A stretch of DNA of 59,705 nt, the filler included, from Globobulimina sp. (lineage: Eukaryota), in the NCBI GenBank assembly GCA_003354225.1. It is 9 parts of 9 records of this genome, joined end to end, with 100 filler letters (N's around TTAATTAATTAA, not from the genome) between each part and the next. Parts side by side here need not be neighbours in the genome. Positions count along the whole stretch, not along the records: positions 19,977 to 26,526 come from PIVH01000277.1; 8 more parts are not named here. One strand, written 5' to 3'. Positions within the stretch are counted from its first letter, which is position 1; each line of letters begins with the position of its first letter. The position numbers and the translations under genes were made by a program. The notes under the pieces are model-generated. The model had not been told where the DNA came from, made no database searches, and was given only the letters and a program-made list of their open reading frames with translations. Shown here in pieces: positions 6,568 to 53,173 of the stretch.

Positions 6568-6667
6568 NNNNNNNNNNNNNNNNNNNNNNNNNNNNNNNNN
6601 NNNNNNNNNNNTTAATTAATTAANNNNNNNNNNNNNNNNNNNNNNNNNNNNNNNNNNNNNNNNNNNN
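6568..6667. other. Artificial contig spacer
   Basis: 44N + TTAATTAATTAA + 44N. Confidence 0.99.
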
Positions 6668-13224: not shown

Positions 13225-13324
13225 NNNNNNNNNNNNNNNNNNNNNNNNNNNNNNNNNNNNNNNNNNNNTTAATTAATTAANNNNNNNNNNNNNNNNNNNN
13301 NNNNNNNNNNNNNNNNNNNNNNNN
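13225..13324. other. Artificial contig spacer
   Basis: 44N + TTAATTAATTAA + 44N. Confidence 0.99.
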
Positions 13325-19876: not shown

Positions 19877-19976
19877 NNNNNNNNNNNNNNNNNNNNNNNN
19901 NNNNNNNNNNNNNNNNNNNNTTAATTAATTAANNNNNNNNNNNNNNNNNNNNNNNNNNNNNNNNNNNNNNNNNNNN
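19877..19976. other. Artificial contig spacer
   Basis: 44N + TTAATTAATTAA + 44N. Confidence 0.99.
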
Positions 19977-21138
19977 TCTGAAATCAAAAGGAAATTCTCT
20001 CTGTTTCTGGTAAAGCATCACTCCGATTGTTTGCCATAATTAAATTTTTGCAGCGTTATATCCAATAATCCCATCCAGTCATTGGATTATACTGCGTCGA
20101 ATTGTGTCGGTGACATAATCAGCGATAAACGAACAAAAATTAATAATCAAACTGCCATCATTTGTTCGTTCAGAATGACCAACTTGTAATACATTTTTAA
20201 CCCATTCGATTACTCTTGACAGTATTGCATAATATTTGTTTCTTCTCGTCGTCTAATCAGGTGATAATATTAGGCGGCGAAAAAATAGATCAGTGTGTGT
20301 GTGTGTTCCAGACAGACTGAGAAATGCGCCGTTAAACAAAATCATTTATAACCAAATACATACTCAAATATTCCAATTAAAAGGTTCAGGATCAGCTGCA
20401 TGAAATGGCTTAAATGGTCTACTTTCATTGCAAATTGCAACTTGTAATTCCAATAAAGTCCAATTAATAAATTGCGAAATGGTCGATGGTAACGTAGGGT
20501 TTTCTGCAGTTTTCTAAAAACTTTACTGAATAATCACCAGCTTAAATCTAAATACACGGCTCACAAATTACGTGCAATTGTGGCGATTTAAAGCTATCGA
20601 TGAATGGAGTTGTGAGGAATAAATTGAATGAATGATTTCTATCAATTTAAGTGCTGAAAATGAGCATAAAATCGGTGGCTTGATATTAATTCATTGCTGG
20701 ATATGGGGATATTATGGTGAAGAAGCTGTCAATACGAAAAGTTGGTGAGTGTGCGGCAGTGTTCTGCTCATCAACCTTTTGTGTCTGCATGAGCACAATG
20801 AATTTGTTCGGTGTTTGTTGTTTTTATTTTTAAAGTTGAAATATGTCAGTTTGTAATTTATAATACAGATATATCTTGAATATACAGCTGTAGGCACAAC
20901 ATATCAAACGTACAATACATTTGGCACCGCAGATATTTTTTTATGCGTTGTTTTGTGTTTGACAATTTATTTTTGTTTCGTTTTTGTATTATACGTATAC
21001 TTTTCAAACAATATTTACCTAAATCCAATCCCTTGAACTGTGAAATGAATTGCCAGAATTACCCATAAACCAAGCACCATGGCATCAATCTTTGATGGTT
21101 TTTGTCTGCTGCCATAACGTACCTAAACTATATATTTT

Positions 21139-21303
21139 AAAAAAGTCATATTTGATTTTCGTTGGCGCTGCATCGAAACTATACGTTGTATGACGTCGAT
21201 GTAGCTTACAAAAAAGTCATAATTGTTTTTGGTCGGTCTTGCACCATACGTAGTATGATGTCGATGTAGCATTTAGCAAACTTACAAAAAAGACATAATT
21301 GTT
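21139..21303. repeat. Imperfect tandem repeat, ~65-76-bp period, 2.3 copies
   Basis: AAAAAAG(T/A)CATA(A/T)TTG occurs three times (21139, 21210, 21286). ATACGT(T/A)GTATGA(C/T)GTCGATGTAGC occurs twice (21181, 21246). Confidence 0.8.
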
Positions 21304-21435
21304 ACATACTTGGTAAAACACAACACACGTAATAACTAAGCACATACTGAGTTCTTTGTAGCTGTCTGTATAGTTTGAGTTAAAAATAAGCATTTCAGAA
21401 AGTAATTACAAACCTAAGATTGTCATTGGAATGAT

Positions 21436-21503
21436 TTCGCACAACAGGAATTGAACCTGTATCCTGAAACAAATCCAGTGCTCTACATTTGAGCTATGTG
21501 CAA
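21436..21503 (-). tRNA. tRNA-like element or pseudo-tRNA with a non-canonical anticodon arm (possibly TTG)
   Basis: Minus strand: TTGCACA-TA-GCTC-AAATGTA-GAGC-A-CTGGA-TTTGT-TTCAG-GAT-ACAGG-TTCAATT-CCTGT-TGTGCGA-A. All four stems pair and A/B-box-like motifs are present, but the anticodon loop is only 5 nt. Confidence 0.65.
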
Positions 21504-21620
21504 TGACGCAATTCTATCTATGTGTTCAGTTGGTGAGCTAGCTGGCACAACCTAAAGTTTTATTTTGTTAGTAAAAAATGCTAGAAATGTTTAATTGATT
21601 TCGAAAAGTTTTAAAGAAGT

Positions 21621-22688
21621 TTATATTTGTCGATTTGTATCATCATTCAAAAATTCTAATTCTTGTAACAAATTGCGATAATCCAACCATCGCATTTCCT
21701 CTAAACAATCAATAACAGATATCCACGCTTCGCATTGTTCAGTTATTGGTCCCAAACGTTTTAATTTTTGTTTTATCCCTAAAAAAACATGTTCAGCAAT
21801 GTTTAACAATGGATAATAAGCTGGTAAATATAATACATAGCAACCAAATTTATCACAAAAATCATCAATCATAGCACGATTATGCCAGCTCGCATTATCC
21901 ATTAATAAAATAGAATTTGCATATGGATATGGATTAATCTGTTCATATAAACTAGTCCATAGGAAATCCATAAAACTCCATTTATCAAAATTATCCCTCG
22001 ATAAAACATAATCTACAACACCATGGTAGTTTGCCGCTAATAAAATATTTAATTTAAAACCTCTTAAATATGATACTGTGTTGTAACAAGGTCTTCCTCT
22101 GGGTGAACGACCATAATATCGGTTATGACTTCGATCATTTCTCCATGATTCATCGATGAATAACAATTGTGAATATGCAGTACATATTCTATCAAACACA
22201 ATCCAAAAAATCGCGACTTCAGTAATTGAATGTTCTCTAGAGATCTAATTGAGTTATCAAAAGTAAAAACGTACAATGCAGCACATTGAAAACTAAACTT
22301 TTGCTGCGCGTTTAAAGGTAAAAACTAAGCGTTCAGTCATATAATAATGGAGAGCTGTTTCCGAAACATGAATTCCATTATTTCCTAATATTGTCCTAAA
22401 TTCAAATAATGTAGTTGATGGATTGCGATATACTTGTGCTAACACAATAAATTGGCCAAATAATGTTAATTTATGTCTTCGTTTAGGATGTAAATAATGC
22501 CTATTTTGTTTTCTAATTACCTCTAAAGGTGTTAACACATCACCAGTTGTGTCAAATATACAACTTAAAGTCCATACATATTGCCTGCTAATATCATGAA
22601 TCTCGCAAATTTGAGAGAGTGGATAATTACCTCTGCGACATGCTTTTAAAATGGCCCATCGTTGTGCAACAGGTATGAGTTTTGGCAT
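21621..22688 (-). mobile_element. IS630/Tc1-mariner DD34E transposase, ~337 aa, one intron (22245-22298)
   Basis: An N-terminal HTH-like exon and a catalytic exon with FIDES, LMDNASWH and YLPAYYPLLNIAE. There are 34 residues between the second D and E. A 54-nt GT-AG intron restores the frame. Confidence 0.88.
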
Positions 22689-22818
22689 TCTGTCAGGAAA
22701 GTTAAGAAATTTGATCTCTTAGCTAGTTGTGTTTCTGAAGCCATCTTAGTAGTAGGGTCTGTTTTTAAAGTGAAAAGATTTACAAAGTTAATTAAAAACT
22801 AAAAAAAAAAAACAAATA

Positions 22819-24883
22819 TTATTGATTGTTATTTACTTTTCTTTTCTTTACCGGGGGTGGATTGTAAGGATCCACTTTAAAATTGTGTAATGTTTGTTTA
22901 TTAAAGCGAGCACCATTTTCGTCCTCATAATGTCCGAATCCATCATCCGTCGGTTCATAACTACCCATCCCTCCATCATTGCCAATGCCTCCATCATTAT
23001 TGCCAGTCCCTCCGCCATTGTTGTTGCCAATCCCTGCACTCAATGCATCTGTCAATGCCAATGCCTCCAACACTGACAATGCCTTCATCCCACTGTTAAT
23101 GCCTCCATCACTGACAAGGCCTTCAACACTGCCAACGCCTCCAACACTGCCAATGCCTCCATCAATGCCAATGCCTCCATCCTCCGACATTTCTTTCTGA
23201 TGCGGTCCATCCGTTACCATACTTAACCAATATTGCTCCGCGTCTTGTTTACTGATATCTTTATTTTTCTCTAAGTAATTCTTGCCGAATTCTTGCATTT
23301 GTTCCCGCATAAATCCTGTACATTCAAAAATTTTTACTGCTTTCTCCAGTGCGCTGCTTTTCTCGTCTAATAATATGCTGTTGACGCTGATTTGCTCAGC
23401 CAATTGATCACTTTGCTGTGTAGAAATTTTGTATAGCAAAAGAGATACATCGGAATAAATCAAAACCTACCGATTGTAAAATGTCGAAAAGTTGCTTACG
23501 ATCTTGCAACAGTTGTGCTAATTGTTGCTTTGCGAAGATTTGCCATTCATACATTGACTGCAACTGTTGTGTAAATGTGTGCAACTGATTTTGTGCGGGA
23601 GGTGTTGTAAATTGTCTCCGAGTCACCCTGGACCCAGCCATTCTTGTTTGCCCTGCATCTTTAAAATAAGACATAGACGTGCCGGCATATTTCCTTTGTA
23701 TTATGCTTTGTTTTTTCTTTCTTCCGACACTGTTAACACGTGGTTTGTTGTCTGGTTTACTAAGTGGTTTGTTGTCGGAATTATCACCACCATTTGTGTC
23801 GGGTTTCATTGGTTTACTAAGTGGTTTGTTGTCGGAATTATCATCATCATTTGTGCCGAATTTCATTGGTTGTTTGTTGTCGGAATTAGCACCACCGGCA
23901 TCATTATAATCATTATCGTCACTATCTGGCGAACAAAGATTTACCTGATGCCCACGTTTAACTGCGCTACGTTTACCTGTACAATGGGCGAATAAATTAA
24001 CTGCGCCACGCTGATTAATTTGCATTTGACGCTGATTGGTATACGGGCTTCCTAATCCAAAATTAACTCTTTTATCATACATAACAGGCAAATACTTTTT
24101 GGAGATATGTTCTCTAACGTCATGCATTGACATTTTGCCATTTGCCATATTAAATGCCAATTTCATTAAATAATGCTCAGATTTAATTTCTGGTAAAAGC
24201 CCAGCTTTGGCCACTACGTCTTTGATATCTGCAAAAGTAGCCTGAACTTTATCGTCCATCTCTTTCTTCTCCGCTTGTTTCAAATTGGATCTGGTTTGTT
24301 TTTTTAATATTTTTTGTGCCGCCACAGTCATCAAAGTCGGTGCTAATGCTGATGATGCGCTAATTTCTGCACCTATAATTGTTTACCACACACTACTATA
24401 TATATAAAAAAAAAGGCAAAACAGATATTTGAACATACAAAGGAATCCTTCTTTTTGTTTTCTTTGTCGTTGGAATTTAATCAGTATGTGGTCACCTTTA
24501 GGCGGCGTCCACCACTCCATAGGAAAAAAATCTGAATCAAATAAGTCAGTGTCATGCTCGATTGATGTCCATACTTTATCGAGACGCACTGCACATCCAA
24601 TATTATCCCCTGCCATATCACAGCCATGGCCATCCCTTTTTGCACAGCCATATAAAGCCTGGATAAATGCAGCGGATAGCTCAATTGTTGATTGCGAAGC
24701 TGATAAACTCGATAAAACAGCAACTTTTAGTCGATATCTGGTGAACTCTGGATAATTTCCCGCTGATTTTGCACACGTTTCGACCTGAATAAAATAAAAC
24801 AATTTAGTTGCTTTAATAAACTCTTGTTTGGTCTGATGCGCTAATGATTTGCCTGTGTCCGTTGTAAGATCGAAGTCATTCAT
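22819..24883 (-). CDS. Hypothetical ~647-aa protein with internal repeats and a C-terminal NLS-like motif; introns 24373-24438 and 23416-23470
   Basis: Three ORFs join in frame across two GT-AG introns. The product has NSDNK(P/Q) repeats x3, GGIG-type Gly repeats, and ends PPPVKKRKV. Confidence 0.65.
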
Positions 24884-25077
24884 ATTATTTGGGCAATGTC
24901 AATTAAAAAGATATTTACTAATTTCGAAACGATGACAGTTTGTAAGTGTGGTTTTTTTTTTTTAAAATCTTCAAAACTTTTAATTTCTTAAAAACAGTAC
25001 TTTTTTTAGATTATTGGGTTTCCCTGAAAAAAATAAATCATTTAGAGCTAGAAATGGAGAACAAATAAATAAATAAA

Positions 25078-26481
25078 TCATTTAGAGCTACACCATATGT
25101 CAGACGAGCCTATATGTTTCGTAAGATGTAATATTGATTCTTTTGTAATTCCATAATGGCTCAGAGACATTTTATCAACTAACAATATCCCACGAAAAGT
25201 TAATCTTTGTTGAATGGAAGGTATGCCTTCTATCTTGCAAATTTTATCTTTAACTTTTTTTACTGTTTCATTTTGTTCAACATTCAATTTTATTTTTTTC
25301 CCAGTGAACATCCTCACAAATATTTGCATAGCATTATGTACTAATATTGAATTTGCAAAAAAATTATGTATCTGATTAATACATAAAGTATAGACCAATA
25401 CGTTATTACTCAAATTTACAAACTTGATGCATGAAACTTAAACTGTTTCCAACTTATTGTTTAATACTTTATCTCCAACACACAGTTGGTCACAAACCAA
25501 ATCAGACGAACTCAACTCAGCACTACACCAACTTTGTTTATTTGAAACAAATATGGGATGTCCAACAGTACAAACTATTTCATTATGATCACATAATGTA
25601 ATCACAACTAACTCATTCACAGAATATTGTGATATATTATCAACATGATATATTTCAAATGCATTCTTCTCTAAATTAAATGTTGTGACAGCATCACCAA
25701 TTTCAACACATTCGATATTTATCTCTTTATTATGTGTTGTCAACACCTTTGTGCCAGCAACAAAGCATCCGACTTTACGCATAATTACTAAACAAACATT
25801 ATCATCAGAATTGCTTAATATATCATTATCAAATAATTGCTTCCCATCAAATATAATTTTTTGTTGCGATGTTTCAATGTTATATGATTTATAAATAGCA
25901 TTTTTCAGTTCTCTTACTGTTTTATTTTGACATAAATTTATTTCCCATATCCCATGATCCAATGTCTTAACATTTATTGTTTGGTGGTTGTTTGATGATG
26001 TAATAATATTATTAATATTATTAATATTATTATTGTTACTTACTGGCATTTCGAATGTGTAGTCTTGTTTAGCTGTAATAATACTATTATTGTTACTTAC
26101 TGGCATTTCGAATGTGTTGTCTTGTTTAGCTGTTTGTTGCTTGTTTGATGTAATAATATTATTATTAATATTATTATTATTACTTACTGGCATTTCTAAT
26201 TTTGATTGAATTTCCAAAACAGCAGATACAAATTTAAGTTGTTGAACAATATTATCAGTTAATGCAGCTGCAATTTTATTCACATTGCATGCAGATTTCA
26301 TATAACCAGTCAATAAAAAATGCAATGTAATTTGTTCTTTCTTTATATTTGATTTTATTTCTTGTAAATGATATTTACATATAAAATCATCCATATTTGC
26401 AACATCCTTTTTCACTTTTTCTCTTTTTCTCTTTTTACTTTTTTTCTTTTTTTTATTCTTTTTCTCTTTCTCTTTTTCCAT
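25078..26481 (-). CDS. BUBL-type protein: ubiquitin-like domain, Hint (intein-like) domain, ubiquitin domain; one in-frame TAA at 25438-25440; probably 5'-partial
   Basis: UBL ending RKVG, then Hint CFVAGTKV...TVGHP...L.VGD...VYTL...HNFFANSILVHN (25333-25767), then A-MQIFVRMFTGKKI...IEGIP..QQRL. The two track ORFs are in the same frame, separated by a single stop. Confidence 0.88.
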
Positions 26482-26526
26482 TTCCTTTTTCTTTTTCTTT
26501 TTCTTTTTCTTTTTCTTTTTCTTTTT

Positions 26527-26626
26527 NNNNNNNNNNNNNNNNNNNNNNNNNNNNNNNNNNNNNNNNNNNNTTAATTAATTAANNNNNNNNNNNNNNNNNN
26601 NNNNNNNNNNNNNNNNNNNNNNNNNN
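26527..26626. other. Artificial contig spacer
   Basis: 44N + TTAATTAATTAA + 44N. Confidence 0.99.
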
Positions 26627-33168: not shown

Positions 33169-33268
33169 NNNNNNNNNNNNNNNNNNNNNNNNNNNNNNNN
33201 NNNNNNNNNNNNTTAATTAATTAANNNNNNNNNNNNNNNNNNNNNNNNNNNNNNNNNNNNNNNNNNNN
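33169..33268. other. Artificial contig spacer
   Basis: 44N + TTAATTAATTAA + 44N. Confidence 0.99.
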
Positions 33269-36308: not shown

Positions 36309-37568
36309 CTATATCAATATCACATCCGGCGCCTGCAAACTGGACTGAAACTTCTTCAGAAAATCCGAGGACACCGTGGCTTTCATATGAGGCAAAGCTT
36401 TTACCAAATCACACTCTGCGCCATCCATATCAACCTGTTCACCACTCACCGGCGAGCCATACAAGTATGTATCAGCCAAACCAATCAACTCATACTGAGT
36501 ATGAATAATATAGCGATAGATGGCCGCCGTCAACTTCCAACGCCCAGCAAAAGCTATCAGGCTCGTTGGCACTCCATTCTGTAACAACGTGGTTGCAAAT
36601 CCTTTCCGGAGGCCATGGAAACGATAACGCTCCGCCTCCAGAAACCCCATTGCATGCACTACTTTGCTCCACGTCTTCTTGATACGCGTCAGGGTACAGT
36701 CAACCCCCTGCACCTGAAACAAGTACCTATTAAGTAATTTATATTTGTATATGCGCCTCAATTCACGTCGCTGTAAATGATATAGATGATATAACAAAAT
36801 CGCAGGATCGATACGCTTATTGGTACGCCCCACACGCAAGAAAACATCGCTTCCGAGTCTCGCGGATTTCGAATGTCGCAATCTGATGCGAACATGATGC
36901 AAATTATCATACGCACGAGAATATGCATTGCTTGTATACAATGTGCGTGCACCATCACGTTGCCAGAACATGGTCAAATCGCGGAGGTACACACCATATC
37001 CTTTGTATGCTTTATTGCCATTTTGGTAGCACTCTGCCCCCCTCAAACCTAACACACCTACAAACAGGAGAGACAACGCAAACATGTACCATACCAATCT
37101 CTGCTTATCATGCCATATCTGGGCGAAAGACAACCATTGTTTTGCGAGTGCGATTTCATGTGTATTCATAACCAAACCATAATATACCTTAAACGTCATG
37201 ATATATTGTACAATCTGCAGGAGAAGCCTCGCAGTAACGGGTAGGGTATTACTTCCCTTCCCAGGATGCCTCTTTCGGACATATTTAATTAATGCCATCA
37301 ACGCCGGGTTGGTGGACCACGACTGCTGTAAGCCACAAAGCTGCGCAACAAAATCCAGGGATCTTAACTTATTTCGCACCGTCTCATAGACATTTTTCCT
37401 TGTTCGAATAAAACAACAATCAATAACATATATCTGCAAAATAACGTCACTGAGCGGCAAATCCCAGACCATCGCATCCGGAATTTTCAGACGCCTCATC
37501 GTCCGCCAGAACTCACACCAGTTCTTAGCATATGTGTCCTCTGAGGTAGCTTTCACCCCACCATTCAA
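36309..37568 (-). CDS. Tyrosine recombinase (DIRS-type)
   Basis: LGLRGAE, RLRHSKS, FHGLRKGFAT, GRWK and IYRY give the R-K-HxxR-W-Y set. The frame is open to ~37640, where a TTTCTGCTACAG acceptor lies. Confidence 0.92.
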   Translation of the reverse strand: MNGGVKATSEDTYAKNWCEFWRTMRRLKIPDAMVWDLPLSDVILQIYVIDCCFIRTRKNVYETVRNKLRSLDFVAQLCGLQQSWSTNPALMALIKYVRKRHPGKGSNTLPVTARLLLQIVQYIMTFKVYYGLVMNTHEIALAKQWLSFAQIWHDKQRLVWYMFALSLLFVGVLGLRGAECYQNGNKAYKGYGVYLRDLTMFWQRDGARTLYTSNAYSRAYDNLHHVRIRLRHSKSARLGSDVFLRVGRTNKRIDPAILLYHLYHLQRRELRRIYKYKLLNRYLFQVQGVDCTLTRIKKTWSKVVHAMGFLEAERYRFHGLRKGFATTLLQNGVPTSLIAFAGRWKLTAAIYRYIIHTQYELIGLADTYLYGSPVSGEQVDMDGAECDLVKALPHMKATVSSDFLKKFQSSLQAPDVILI

Positions 37569-37815
37569 AGTAGAATACAGAATTTGTTTGTATTCCGGAG
37601 ATACATAATCAGATAACGGATTGTTAAATTGTTTACATCTGACTGTAGCAGAAAAACAAAGTTAGTAAGGTACCCTAAAAAGAAAAAAGATGTATAAAAA
37701 CGACAAAGGCATGGCACCTGCCGACAAACTATAAGTTGTGTGATTGCAAAGATGCAAACAAAGTCAAAGTCAAAGCATGCAATAATCTGAAAATGGAACG
37801 CTGCAGAAACGAAAA

Positions 37816-39808
37816 TCACCATTGATGAATGTCTGGAATGCATGGAACCGCAGAAAAAGGCTGCAATGACCAGTTATTATCTAAGCATGTTTGCCGCGCC
37901 AAAGCATTAAAGTCACGTAAATGAAAACGCGACGCCATATCCGGTAATTTATTAATCTTTGTATTAACATAATTGACATATAATTTGAGTTCTTTCTCGA
38001 CTGCAAACATACAGATCCATCGCAGCGCAGATTGCAAGAACTCATCACTCGCATTCTTATTAATCAAAACAGACTCAACATGCTTGCTATCTGTCTTTAA
38101 TAGGATCTTCGTTCTCGGCGTCAATAAATGTCGAAACGTGTGCAAGCCCGTAATGATAGCAATGATTTCGAAGTGGGCAATGGCGAAATCAGCTTCATAA
38201 TCCTCATCATGCGTGGCAAATGTATGAGTGTATTGGGATGGAATGGAGGCAGCAATCCAATGGCCTTTGTACCAAACACCTATTGCAGGATTCCATCCAT
38301 TCTCACGAGAGCCATTAGTCGCACCATCAAAGTGCATCTCATCCGTTGGCATGACTTGATCGACTATGTCAAAAATGGAGATGCTGGACACTTGATCAAT
38401 ATATTTAATCCACCACCGGATATCCTTGAGCTCCCAAGGGGTCAATGGTATGACCACATCTTTCCGGCCATATGCATCAATGTACTTATACATAGATTTC
38501 CGGAGTCGGCGCAAAAACGCTTTTCCCGGCCAACCCATATTTGATACATCCTGCAATTTGCTCACCATTGACTCATAAATATGCAAAATCAGTGATTCAT
38601 GAAAGACAGCCGCATATAGCACCTGCTTGATCTTCCAAATGCGATTCTCACTGAGCGAAATCCGCATGGTCTGCGTATTGATGATGAAACCAATCATCTC
38701 CAGCAACCTAACCGGACCGCGCCGTTTCTTGGGTAACTCATCCAACCCAATCAAGTGGAGATATTCACAGAAAGTATTAAATAATTTCGACGCATAACTA
38801 AATACCGGCGGCAAAAAGATAATGTAATCATCAATATAGTTATTTATGATTACCTTCAATATCTGCTTACTATTTGCTTTTAAAATGAACAGCCAATCAA
38901 AAAATTGGCAATCTCTAAACAACTGCAGATCAGCCGTCGTCAAGATAGGTGACAACCGATCCTCAGTACATCGAATCAAACGCGCTCCATTGCATAGGAT
39001 TGTATCCGCAAAAGGAACCAACGCCGACATATAATGAGAGGATAACCATTTGATAACCAATTGTTTATCCCATTTAAAAATTAATTTATTATCATAGACA
39101 AAAGCCCTATCAACGATAGGTTCGTGGTTCACCTCTTCACGAAACTTTCCATAGAAGTACTGCACATTCGCATTCTCGACGGCCGCATTAATATCAGACA
39201 ACAAATCCGAACCATTACATTTTATATTAAAATAACGGCAGACCAGCTGACCCAAATCCTGCGTATGTTTGGAGCCAGTTCTGGTGCCCCAGAAGTCATA
39301 AAAATCCACCATTGTACATCCATCAAATTTATAGCCACTGTACTGCGGCTCCGTTATTGCCAACGGAACCTGACGAAAAGCCGTTTTCAAGTCAGTCTTC
39401 GCCAAATAGAAGCCTCTGCCCCATAACAGATAATAAATGATGCAGTACGACGCCAGTTTGCGAAGATTCATCAATGCGATATGGGCCTTCTCATCCGGTG
39501 TCAACATGTTTATTGACGGATTGCGAGCGGATCCTTTCGTACCGTCCCGTATTACGCGCCAATCAATTATCTCACCCGTGTCAGGGTCCACTGTTTTTGG
39601 ACGGGTAAAGAGGGGAACATAGCCATTCGCTTTTGTCAGCCAGCTGACGGTTTTACCAATACAGAGATCCTTGGTAAGACACTGCGCAATCTCAATTTTC
39701 GATTTCCGGCCTCCAGCCCCATCAGCATATGTGAACTGATTTAATTGTTTGTTTTCAGGATTATGTATATTCAATTTCCAACCAAAACGCAAATAATGTT
39801 TATTAATT
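37816..39808 (-). CDS. Reverse transcriptase-RNase H of the DIRS type, 5'-partial, with a SAM-like insertion
   Basis: RT motifs: WRVIRD, KTDLKTAFRQVP, FWGTRTG, NYIDD and MIGF. RNase H motifs: FDGA, IAHFE, KTDS and NKLPDMASR. Confidence 0.92.
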
Positions 39809-39908
39809 NNNNNNNNNNNNNNNNNNNNNNNNNNNNNNNNNNNNNNNNNNNNTTAATTAATTAANNNNNNNNNNNNNNNNNNNNNNNNNNNNNNNNNNNN
39901 NNNNNNNN
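39809..39908. other. Artificial contig spacer
   Basis: 44N + TTAATTAATTAA + 44N. Confidence 0.99.
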
Positions 39909-46441: not shown

Positions 46442-46541
46442 NNNNNNNNNNNNNNNNNNNNNNNNNNNNNNNNNNNNNNNNNNNNTTAATTAATTAANNN
46501 NNNNNNNNNNNNNNNNNNNNNNNNNNNNNNNNNNNNNNNNN
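46442..46541. other. Artificial contig spacer
   Basis: 44N + TTAATTAATTAA + 44N. Confidence 0.99.
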
Positions 46542-46745
46542 GCCGCTGTTGAAGCCGCCGAGTCCATCGGGTCCATGCATGCTCAGGGCCCGCTCTGGCA
46601 TGTTTGCGTTTTCTGTAGCGATCCCAATTCGTGGGGTTCGCGGTGGGTCGAGATAGGTGACAATCGCCTGAAGGTTTGTTGTTGCCTGTTCAGGCGAGAC
46701 ATTACCCCCGGTTGCGGTTACAGCAAGTACATCAAGGCGCGGGAT
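46542..46745 (-). CDS. Bacterial nucleoside hydrolase (IU-NH family) internal fragment
   Basis: PRLDVLAVTATGGNVSPEQATTNL...PRIG...HGPDGLG, GC-rich. Confidence 0.8.
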
Positions 46746-47927
46746 GAACGGGTGGCCGCCCTTAAAGAAGCTAAGCGCCAGCAGGATGAAGAAATTTGCC
46801 GCGTTGAGGCGTTTATCAATCGGTTTCGCTATCAGGCAAATAAGGCTTCGCAGGTCCAGAGCCGGGTCAAACAGTTGGAGAAGATTGAACGGATCTCTTT
46901 GCCTCCAGGGCGAAAAAAGATTGCTTTTACTTTTCCGCAACCCCCCAAGAGCGGAAGAATGGTCCTGGAGCTTTTCAAAGCGTCACAGCAGTATGGTGAG
47001 CTGCTGGTTCTGAATCAAGTGGATGTGCAGATCGAGCAAGGAGAGCGGGTAGCGCTGGTTGGTCCCAATGGGGCGGGAAAGTCGACTTTGATGCGATTGT
47101 TAGCGGGGGTGGAAAAATCTGTCGCCGGGGAACGAAAAGAAGGGCATAATCTGCATCTGGCTTATTTCGCCCAGGACCAGGCCCGTGAATTGAATTCGGC
47201 GCGGAATGTCTTCGACGAACTCTGTGCCGATGCCCCGGTGCCGATGGTGCCGAAACTGCGCAATATCCTAGGGGCGTTCCTGTTCTCCGGGGATGAGGTC
47301 GAAAAACCGGTCAATGTGCTCTCCGGCGGTGAACGCAATCGACTGGCTCTGGCCAAGTTGCTGTTGCGTCCGGCCAACCTGTTGTTGCTTGATGAACCGA
47401 CCAATCATCTGGATCTGCAATCGAAACAGGTGCTGCTCGATTCACTAAAGGGATACCAGGGTACCATCGTCTTTGTTTCCCATGATCGCTATTTTGTTGA
47501 TGAACTGGCAACTCGGGTTCTGGAAGTCGGTCGTGGAAAAGTCGAATCCTATCAGGGCAATTACGAAGACTTTCTGGGCGAAAAACAGCGCTTTGGCGAT
47601 CTCAGTCACAGCGCGCAACGGGTCGAACAGCATCTCCAGCAGCCGACTGGTGTGGCCGTCCCCGAAAAAGAACTGCGCTTGCAAGGGCATGCTGATCGTA
47701 AAGAGCAGAAGCGGCGCGAACAGAAACGGCTGCGAGATTTGACGGCCATTGAAACCCGGATCGAAATCCTGGAAACCAGACTGGCAGAGTTGGAACAGCG
47801 GATGGCAGAACCTGAGCTATACCAGGACCAGGTCCACTGGCGGCAGGTCAGCCAGGAGCATGCCGCCCTGAAAGAAGAGTTGGCGCAGGCCTACCAACAA
47901 TGGGAAGGATTGCAGGAATCGGCATGA
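46716..47927 (+). CDS. Bacterial ABC-F ribosome-associated ATPase, C-terminal half only
   Basis: Linker GYSKY...FINRFRYQANKASQVQSRVK, then GPNGAGKST, LSGGE, LDEPTNHLD, VSHDRYF and a coiled-coil tail. GC-rich and intronless, with the first ABC domain absent. Confidence 0.93.
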   Translation, partial: GYSKYIKARDERVAALKEAKRQQDEEICRVEAFINRFRYQANKASQVQSRVKQLEKIERISLPPGRKKIAFTFPQPPKSGRMVLELFKASQQYGELLVLNQVDVQIEQGERVALVGPNGAGKSTLMRLLAGVEKSVAGERKEGHNLHLAYFAQDQARELNSARNVFDELCADAPVPMVPKLRNILGAFLFSGDEVEKPVNVLSGGERNRLALAKLLLRPANLLLLDEPTNHLDLQSKQVLLDSLKGYQGTIVFVSHDRYFVDELATRVLEVGRGKVESYQGNYEDFLGEKQRFGDLSHSAQRVEQHLQQPTGVAVPEKELRLQGHADRKEQKRREQKRLRDLTAIETRIEILETRLAELEQRMAEPELYQDQVHWRQVSQEHAALKEELAQAYQQWEGLQESA

Positions 47928-53073: not shown

Positions 53074-53173
53074 NNNNNNNNNNNNNNNNNNNNNNNNNNN
53101 NNNNNNNNNNNNNNNNNTTAATTAATTAANNNNNNNNNNNNNNNNNNNNNNNNNNNNNNNNNNNNNNNNNNNN
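53074..53173. other. Artificial contig spacer
   Basis: 44N + TTAATTAATTAA + 44N. Confidence 0.99.

Follow-up and report, generated by a model that had tools for sequence, protein, structure and literature searches.

The DNA considered here, hereafter the window, is a stretch of 59,705 nucleotides from Globobulimina sp. (assembly GCA_003354225.1) that consists of nine contigs, from 6567 to 6532 bases in descending size, joined by N44-TTAATTAATTAA-N44 linkers. One of these contigs, located at 19977..26526 (PIVH01000277.1), contains on its minus strand a gene in which a Hint-type autoprocessing domain is placed between two ubiquitin-like domains (UBLs), as in the BUBL genes known from Tetrahymena. 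The gene is treated in this work as a BUBL member in a eukaryote with ordinary stop codons; the assembled copy is interrupted by an in-frame TAA and probably represents either a paralogue that has been disabled of late or a null allele.

Gene layout

The gene extends over 26481..25078 of the minus strand as a single frame, which starts with the ATG at 26481 and is closed by the TGA at 25080..25078, and its translation, with an X at the sole internal TAA, comprises 467 residues. An earlier note on this DNA had located a UBL-Hint-ubiquitin gene at 25078..26000. A gene is indeed present there, but this interval covers only part of it, since the frame reaches upstream to the ATG at 26481; on the plus strand of 25078..26000 no gene was found. 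The elements named in that note, which are a UBL ending in R-K-V-G directly followed by Cys1 (C-F-V-A-G-T), the T-V-G-H-P block, a terminal His-Asn, an Ala and a UBL starting with M-Q-I-F-V and lacking Gly-Gly, were all recovered in this one frame of the minus strand.

The product begins with a Lys-rich low-complexity region (26395..26526, minus strand, as are all the features of the gene given below), in which the first ATG is that at 26481 and the frame is open to 26526. This region is followed by a SAM-like N-terminal domain of five helices (residues 30-96; 26194..26394), recognised from an AlphaFold2 model, Foldseek matches and relatives, and by an Asn-rich linker with three F/L-E-M-P-V-S-N-N-N repeats (25984..26193). 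The first UBL, UBL1 (residues 167-238; 25768..25983), is matched by the Pfam families ubiquitin and Ubiquitin_4 and ends in R-K-V-G, Gly238 being the -1 residue. The Hint or BIL-type autoprocessing domain comes next (residues 239-383, 145 residues; 25333..25767), assigned from Pfam as well as from PDB sequences and folds. It contains Cys1 within C-F-V-A-G-T (Cys1 codon 25767..25765), block B with T-V-G-H-P (25569..25555, of which T305-x-x-H308 takes up 25569..25558), an H-N-F-F-A-N block from 25368 and the terminal His382-Asn383 of L-V-H-N (25338..25333). The in-frame TAA is codon 348 (25438..25440), between block B and blocks F/G of this domain. The +1 residue is Ala384 (25330..25332), after which come UBL2 (residues 385-458; 25108..25329; Pfam ubiquitin at 387-454), starting with M-Q-I-F-V and ending in ..H-L-T-K-H-I-G, and a nine-residue tail, S-S-D-I-W-C-S-S-K, with the TGA terminator (25078..25107).

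The true start is uncertain and could be M1 at 26481, M30 at 26394 or a position beyond the contig; part of the gene may be lacking on the 5' side, because the frame is open through the Lys-rich run to the contig end at 26526. Among the relatives, P0004 and P0007 begin 8 residues before the SAM-like domain, and P0005 is about 200 residues longer at this end. The linker includes a tandem duplication of 57 nt, or 19 codons (26022..26133; 2.0 copies, 96% matches), whose copy number is uncertain because the Logan contigs break at these repeats. A 24-nt direct repeat, with copies at 25027-25050 and 25067-25090, 40 nt apart, overlaps the last codons and the TGA. Just 3' of the gene, at 24955..25064, the summed contig depth increases from about 12 to up to 299 and several loose ends are found, which suggests a high-copy repeat.

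The Hint domain and its neighbours

Comparison with Pfam, as the earlier note had advised for Hint and ubiquitin profiles, gave ubiquitin in two stretches of the gene product (E 1e-30) and Intein_splicing with an E value of 2.7e-9 and 37.4 bits, above its cut-off of 35.8. Below their cut-offs, the product also matches Hint of the Hedgehog type (23.4 bits vs 29.7) and Vint (19.7 vs 27), and weaker matches to Hint_2 and Hom_end_hint were observed as well. When the Hint domain alone was compared with PDB sequences, the best matches were the four chains of 6Y75/6TMM, which correspond to BIL2 from the BUBL1 locus of Tetrahymena thermophila (E 2.6e-8 to 3e-8, with an alignment spanning query residues 2-142 of the 143 searched). 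The next ones were the BIL domain of Clostridium thermocellum (2LWY, E 8.7e-4) and then the Pho RadA intein.

The fold gives the same order. UBL1-Hint-UBL2 was modelled with AlphaFold2 from 8 input sequences, with a mean predicted local distance difference test (pLDDT) score of 78.1, and the best fold match of the modelled Hint domain is 6y75_B, with a target-normalised TM score (TM) of 0.93 and a root-mean-square deviation of 1.1 A over 148 columns; 2LWY (TM 0.88) and mini-inteins (TM 0.70-0.80) are among the other matches. The kinship to Tetrahymena BUBL genes suggested in the earlier note is therefore sustained both by sequence and by fold, BIL2 being the best match in each case.

The 145-residue Hint domain has no endonuclease insert, and the residues C239, T305, H308, H382 and N383 are invariant in an alignment of 7 sequences, that of the window protein included. 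Besides, the Hint/UBL junctions coincide exactly with the UBL domain boundaries on both sides. The window protein shows W-C-S-A-E-L where the other relatives show W/F-C-C-x-E-P. As judged from the Pfam matches, the UBL-Hint-UBL elements are far beyond what chance would produce.

UBL1 is 4 residues shorter than in the relatives, the deletion being ahead of the last strand, and 19 of its 56 aligned residues are identical to a ubiquitin repeat of P0001. UBL2 has the M-Q-I-F-V start and the beta-grasp fold of ubiquitin and is identical to a ubiquitin repeat of P0001 at 36 of 69 residues. It differs from ubiquitin in several surface positions, including the equivalents of Lys6, Lys48 and Ile44 (from an alignment read by eye), and in its C-terminus, which reads ..K-H-I-G-S-S.. 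instead of ending in Gly-Gly. The last UBL of P0004 is likewise devoid of Gly-Gly, and those of P0002 and P0006 end in R-G-G. Since there is no Gly-Gly end, UBL2 would be no usual E1 substrate, and its release would take place by Asn cyclisation and not by a deubiquitinase.

The N-terminal domain is common to the window protein, P0004, P0005 and P0007 only (3 of the 194 proteins fetched). Its AlphaFold2 model reached a pLDDT of 89.3, and SAM domains (those of Sans, tankyrase, Eph, BICC1 and ANKS3) make up almost all of the top rows of the Foldseek search against the PDB, with TM 0.57-0.78 and probabilities up to 0.97, but every E value was 0.17 or higher. Pfam gave no match for this domain at E 0.01 or below. 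It is therefore called SAM-like and not a proven SAM domain.

Family breadth and junction residues

A word-indexed search with residues 160-467 yielded 43 proteins from 1487 candidates. Seven of the 10 matches that were read (P0001, P0002, P0004, P0005, P0006, P0007 and P0008) contain UBL-Hint-UBL units; P0013 begins inside the Hint C-terminus and continues with a UBL, and P0003 and P0009 are polyubiquitin-like proteins without a Hint domain. The other matches of this search, mostly of about 630-790 residues, have Hint families and no ubiquitin in their precomputed Pfam lists. The close relatives come throughout from EukProt or from metagenomes.

A phmmer search whose query was the Hint domain extended by four or five residues per side, against 1.84 billion cluster representatives, gave 2445 matches at E <=1e-3, 251 at E <=1e-10 and 13 at E <=1e-30. 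The flanks were scanned in 152 proteins (the 150 phmmer matches listed, together with P0004 and P0006) by means of hidden Markov models cut from alignment A2, taking as UBL-flanked any full-length Hint domain that has, on each side, a UBL no more than 12 residues away. The scan returned 316 Hint matches, including 265 of full length. UBLs are found on both sides of 29 full-length domains, which belong to 24 proteins, before the domain only in 7 cases and after it only in 1; the remaining 228 domains (in 112 proteins) have none.

The junctions of the 29 UBL-flanked domains are largely uniform. The -1 residue is Gly in 28 and Ala in 1, Cys1 is present in all 29 and the terminal His-Asn in 27, and the +1 position is taken by Ala in 14, by Met in 6, by Ser in 5, by Lys in 2 and by Thr and Ile in 1 each. 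In the Hint domains without UBL flanks the +1 residue is Lys in 135 of 228 and the -1 residue is varied. These counts indicate that the Gly-Cys and His-Asn-Ala-Met junctions of the window protein follow a family rule and are no accident. With regard to accessory domains, an NAD:arginine ADP-ribosyltransferase was detected in 4 of the 17 UBL-flanked representatives scanned, each with Met at +1, which agrees with how the molecule is named in the PDB entries from Tetrahymena, and a MYND finger in 1 of the 17. From its sequence, the window gene is thus classed as a BUBL family member of a subtype with a SAM-like head, one UBL-Hint-UBL unit and a non-conjugatable last UBL.

The same counts bear on two other ways of understanding the Hint domain. 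The first is that of a selfish intein inserted in a polyubiquitin gene, which splices out to restore linear di-ubiquitin. Such an origin would be in line with the fold of the domain, with its Cys1, T-x-x-H and His-Asn residues, and with the mini-inteins 1mi8 and 8ubs among the fold matches; in particular, the Ssp DnaB mini-intein (1MI8) has the same horseshoe Hint fold (TM 0.80), Cys1, block B and terminal Asn. However, the +1 residue is Ala and not Cys, Ser or Thr, and a non-nucleophile is found at +1 in 23 of the 29 relatives. The homing endonuclease is absent, and the domain is situated between two separately folding domains and not in a conserved host motif, so that the +1 nucleophile, the insertion inside such a motif and the selfish behaviour of mini-inteins are all missing here. 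Moreover, the nearest structures are BIL domains (6Y75, 2LWY). An intein of this kind is hardly credible at this locus.

The second is a Hedgehog-like activity, in which the Gly238 thioester would be resolved by a sterol, an alcohol or a thiol to produce a lipid- or metabolite-tagged SAM-UBL1. The Pfam matches to Hint and Vint, weak and below cut-off, point in this direction, and the first chemical step would be the same. Nevertheless, no sterol-recognition region follows the Hint domain, since the UBL is directly next to it, and the C-terminal His-Asn, which serves Asn cyclisation, is kept in the relatives as counted above; Hedgehog proteins are not known to use Asn cyclisation. We regard this possibility as very improbable.

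Further copies and relatives were looked for in several ways. When P0004 and P0001 were used as tblastn queries against the window, this locus alone was recovered. Another contig of run X1 matches the Hint C-terminus plus M-Q-I-F (25316..25368) and then, when its loose end is translated, continues into a ubiquitin-like K-T-L-T-G-K-T-I-T; because it runs past 25316 into this reading, at least one more BUBL-type junction is expected in the data of this run, and this is the sole hint of a paralogue. A metagenome scan with alignment A2 gave 80 loci, all of them plain ubiquitin genes, and a Hint domain was absent from all 80 when they were searched by tblastn with a Hint-only query. For this reason they offer no close orthologue showing the ancestral codon at the position of the TAA. 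A protein atlas gave no usable match to the window protein.

Comparison with BIL2 and putative chemistry

The closest characterised system is BIL2 (6Y75, 6TMM). It shares with the window gene the Hint domain between two UBLs, the Gly before Cys1, the T-x-x-H of block B, the His-Asn end and the lack of an endonuclease, and the residue that it shows opposite the TAA is Gln. On the other hand, the identity is only about 24%, and the window gene has the W-C-S-A-E-L motif, Tyr and Cys in place of the Zn ligands H48 and H125, and a premature stop. Tetrahymena-type relatives carry an ADP-ribosyltransferase and Met at +1, whereas the window gene has a SAM-like head, Ala at +1 and a single unit.

According to section 2.4 of the CASP14 target paper (PMC8616854), written by the authors of the BIL2 structures, BIL2 sits between ubl4 and ubl5 and brings about an ATP-independent, isopeptide-forming conjugation of ubl4 to lysines of ubl5 and Ras; the same source states that H69, the histidine of block B, takes up its active position when Zn is bound. 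This account is repeated in PMC9200820. In the window protein, the Zn-site residues H48 and H125 correspond to Tyr and Cys (PDB-sequence alignment, counted by eye), and the Tyr at the H48 position is invariant in alignments A1 and A2, so that control by Zn may not carry over to these proteins.

By homology with BIL2, an intact copy of the gene would proceed as follows. Cys239 would attack the carbonyl of Gly238 in an N-S acyl shift aided by Thr305 and His308, which would put the SAM-linker-UBL1 portion on a thioester. Cyclisation of Asn383, aided by His382, would release Ala-UBL2. Because the +1 residue is Ala, no transesterification would occur. The thioester would have three outlets: a lysine amine, to form an isopeptide conjugate of SAM-UBL1 with neither ATP nor E1; the freed alpha-amine of Ala-UBL2, to form a linear fusion; or water, leading to hydrolysis.

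The mechanism put forward in the earlier note can be examined in this light. Activation of the UBL independently of E1 is a reasonable inference, because the window protein is a true homologue of BIL2, although such activation has already been published and does not apply to the copy bearing the TAA. The UBL-Gly thioester is likewise acceptable by homology, with the correction that the acyl donor would be the SAM-like domain, the linker and UBL1 together and not a free UBL. Finally, Ala at +1 was said to block canonical splicing, and this is valid for that route, but it does not necessarily prevent ligation of the flanks without a +1 nucleophile. In the review PMC7765530, A-type BIL domains are described as retaining the C-terminal His-Asn and often lacking the +1 nucleophile, and a partly different account of ligation without this nucleophile is given. 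The A-type BIL domain of C. thermocellum (2LWY) resembles the window domain both in fold and in sequence, as indicated above; these domains differ from it in being bacterial, in occurring within variable secreted or surface proteins and in not being flanked by UBLs.

The in-frame TAA

In a gap-free part of the alignment, codon 348 falls opposite Gln in P0004 and P0007, opposite Thr in P0005 and opposite Glu in three other relatives; in the PDB-sequence alignment, also without a gap, it is opposite Gln in BIL2. The 'stop-repaired' protein mentioned in the earlier note alludes to this TAA (25440..25438). An intron around the TAA was considered and rejected, as the alignment is gap-free there and no GT..AG pair of suitable length is available. 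From run X1, Logan provides a contig of 1094 nt (record 4, depth 12.6) that is identical to the window over 24964..25991, TAA included; this run is probably the window's own source, and its contigs hide minor variants.

Beyond the TAA, 119 codons remain open, for which the expected probability is 1.2e-5; in 20000 shuffles an open frame was never obtained, and the two other frames contain 12 and 14 stops. Where the other relatives are invariant, the window protein agrees with them in 35 of 40 columns of the Hint domain, in 12 of 16 of UBL1 and in 13 of 15 of UBL2. In a leave-one-out comparison it loses 5, 4 and 2 of these columns, respectively, and the other relatives lose 0-4, 0-2 and 0-3, so that on this measure it appears slightly more divergent than they are. 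The change to TAA looks recent, because the 119 downstream codons are open and every catalytic residue invariant in the family is kept.

In this copy translation would end two thirds of the way through the Hint domain and no processing would follow: since the TAA removes blocks F/G, the His-Asn and the second UBL, we infer that the gene as assembled cannot autoprocess. The interruption of the frame at codon 348 lowers the case for active membership in the BUBL family and does not affect that for homology. The Gln codons of this open reading frame (ORF) are 21 CAA and 1 CAG, against a single in-frame TAA, and a recent CAA-to-TAA nonsense transition is the simplest and most likely account of codon 348. 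Next in order comes an error or a heterozygous null allele, and read-through comes last.

It could be argued that the gene is intact and functional, that it does autoprocess and that the TAA belongs to one allele only or results from an error of sequencing, amplification or consensus building. The 119 open codons and the conservation of the catalytic and invariant residues are what such a gene would display, and the evidence for the TAA comes from contigs of word depth 12.6 and not from reads. Besides, the assembly is not flawless, since another of its contigs fuses bacterial DNA of 54% GC with eukaryotic DNA of 30% GC. Two assemblies nevertheless agree over 24964..25991 with 0 differences, though probably built from the same reads, and a single-base consensus error is uncommon at about 12-fold depth. 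On balance, an intact gene seems unlikely.

Genetic code of the host

Tetrahymena reads TAA and TAG as Gln, and the question arises whether the TAA of the window gene is decoded in the same manner, either by a ciliate-type code or by programmed read-through, so that the full protein is produced, perhaps at a regulated low level. In favour of this are the BUBL genes known from Tetrahymena, the Gln opposite the TAA in P0004, P0007 and BIL2, and the fact that the ORF ends in TGA. Against it, the ORF has one TAA as compared with 22 CAA/CAG codons; the only other in-frame TAA on the contig falls inside a likely intron, a 66-nt GTATGT...TAG interval; ORFs of 1212 aa and 1347 aa without TAA or TAG exist elsewhere in the window; and the sole tRNA-like sequence of the contig has a shortened anticodon loop and is not called by ARAGORN. 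To our knowledge, no recognised read-through context follows the TAA. Decoding as Gln is distinctly improbable.

Related to this, ORFs of 347, 324, 215, 207, 171 and 141 aa are obtained with table 11 on the same contig, and the two long ORFs just mentioned, which are located on other contigs of the window, might come from another organism. Table 6 was tried and rejected as the code of the organism, on the codon counts of the ORF and the long ORFs devoid of TAA and TAG; a recoded TAA is thus unlikely.

The intron in question belongs to the downstream gene, of unknown family, at 23408..24883, whose sole in-frame TAA is inside the 66-nt GTATGT...TAG interval (24373..24438, minus strand). Removal of this interval preserves the frame, which makes it a likely spliceosomal intron, and its presence suggests that the contig is nuclear and eukaryotic and that such introns are short in it. 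The tRNA-like sequence (21436..21503, minus strand) reaches 47.4 bits with Rfam, in whose alignment its anticodon loop is two bases short, and ARAGORN calls no tRNA there; a pseudogene of a tRNA or a repeat derived from one may account for it.

Several points count against the interpretation preferred here, that of a BUBL member freshly disabled in a host with ordinary stop codons. The TAA was seen in contigs that drop rare variants, and it may reflect a heterozygous site or an error made in amplification or in the consensus. The slight decay observed besides the TAA is almost as compatible with a working gene as with a pseudogene of recent origin, and the Gln residues opposite the TAA are equally expected from a code in which TAA means Gln. 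The 5' end of the gene may be absent from the contig. As for the family, autoprocessing is known only from Tetrahymena BIL2 and is a prediction for the SAM-type subgroup, to which the details of BIL2 regulation may not transfer, the Zn ligands being replaced.

Other features of the window

The linkers occupy 6568-6667, 13225-13324, 19877-19976, 26527-26626, 33169-33268, 39809-39908, 46442-46541 and 53074-53173. ORFs that reach a linker are cut off, and contigs on either side of one are not genomic neighbours. The contig of the BUBL gene also encodes a Tc1/mariner- or IS630-like transposase at 21621..22718 (minus strand), in two ORFs with matches to DDE_3 (E 3.9e-20) and HTH_23.

The contig at 46542..53073 joins a bacterial-type ABC-F gene (46575..47927, 53-56% GC) to a CFAP65 gene (49086 onward, about 30% GC). 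The ABC-F protein has 82% identity to its best relatives and 69-76% to Desulfuromonadales-type proteins, and the CFAP65 fragment has relatives in EukProt and in metagenomes at 65% identity or below. This contig is probably chimeric and, since it joins a bacterial-type gene to a eukaryotic one, the data set is taken to be a mixture. Adjacent ORFs for a tyrosine recombinase (Phage_integrase, E 1.6e-6) and a reverse transcriptase-associated RNase H, at 36309..39792 of the minus strand, on a contig of 42% GC, look like a DIRS-like retroelement.

Implications for the BUBL family

The kind of gene described here is already known. BUBL genes were reportedly described by Dassa, Yanai and Pietrokovski in 2004, from two ciliate species, and the E1-free transfer was reportedly described by Chiarini et al. 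in 2021. A JBC paper of 2004 reportedly deals with splicing and auto-cleavage of BIL domains without a C'-flanking nucleophile, and a paper of 2019 with a non-conjugatable UBL in the Tetrahymena locus. What appears to be new here is the SAM-like head, the host without stop recoding and the count of the family. No mention of a SAM-linked BUBL form was found in the open-access literature on BUBL/BIL ubiquitin, where the matches were the CASP14 paper, a modelling paper with its preprint, and reviews.

Regarding function, the SAM-type BUBLs (the window gene, P0004, P0005 and P0007) might be conceived as single-turnover modifiers that load themselves without ATP or E1. The SAM-like domain and the UBL, placed together onto target lysines, would act as a polymerising or scaffold tag, the released UBL2 without Gly-Gly would be a by-product or an acceptor, and a leaky TAA might gate the amount of active protein in this organism. 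This proposal is quite unlikely to hold as a whole.

The individual gene is probably dead and by itself adds little; the family to which it belongs is of wider interest. Studies of intein-driven transfer of a UBL without E1, E2, E3 or ATP have been confined up to now to a single locus of Tetrahymena. The UBL-Hint-UBL architecture is found again in 24 or more sequence-cluster representatives, the junction residues being strictly kept. The accessory domains vary across the family, from ADP-ribosyltransferase to SAM-like domain and MYND finger, and the SAM-type members suggest a payload larger than a UBL. More natural proteins are thus available for testing this chemistry, among which P0004 is an intact and short example of the SAM type.

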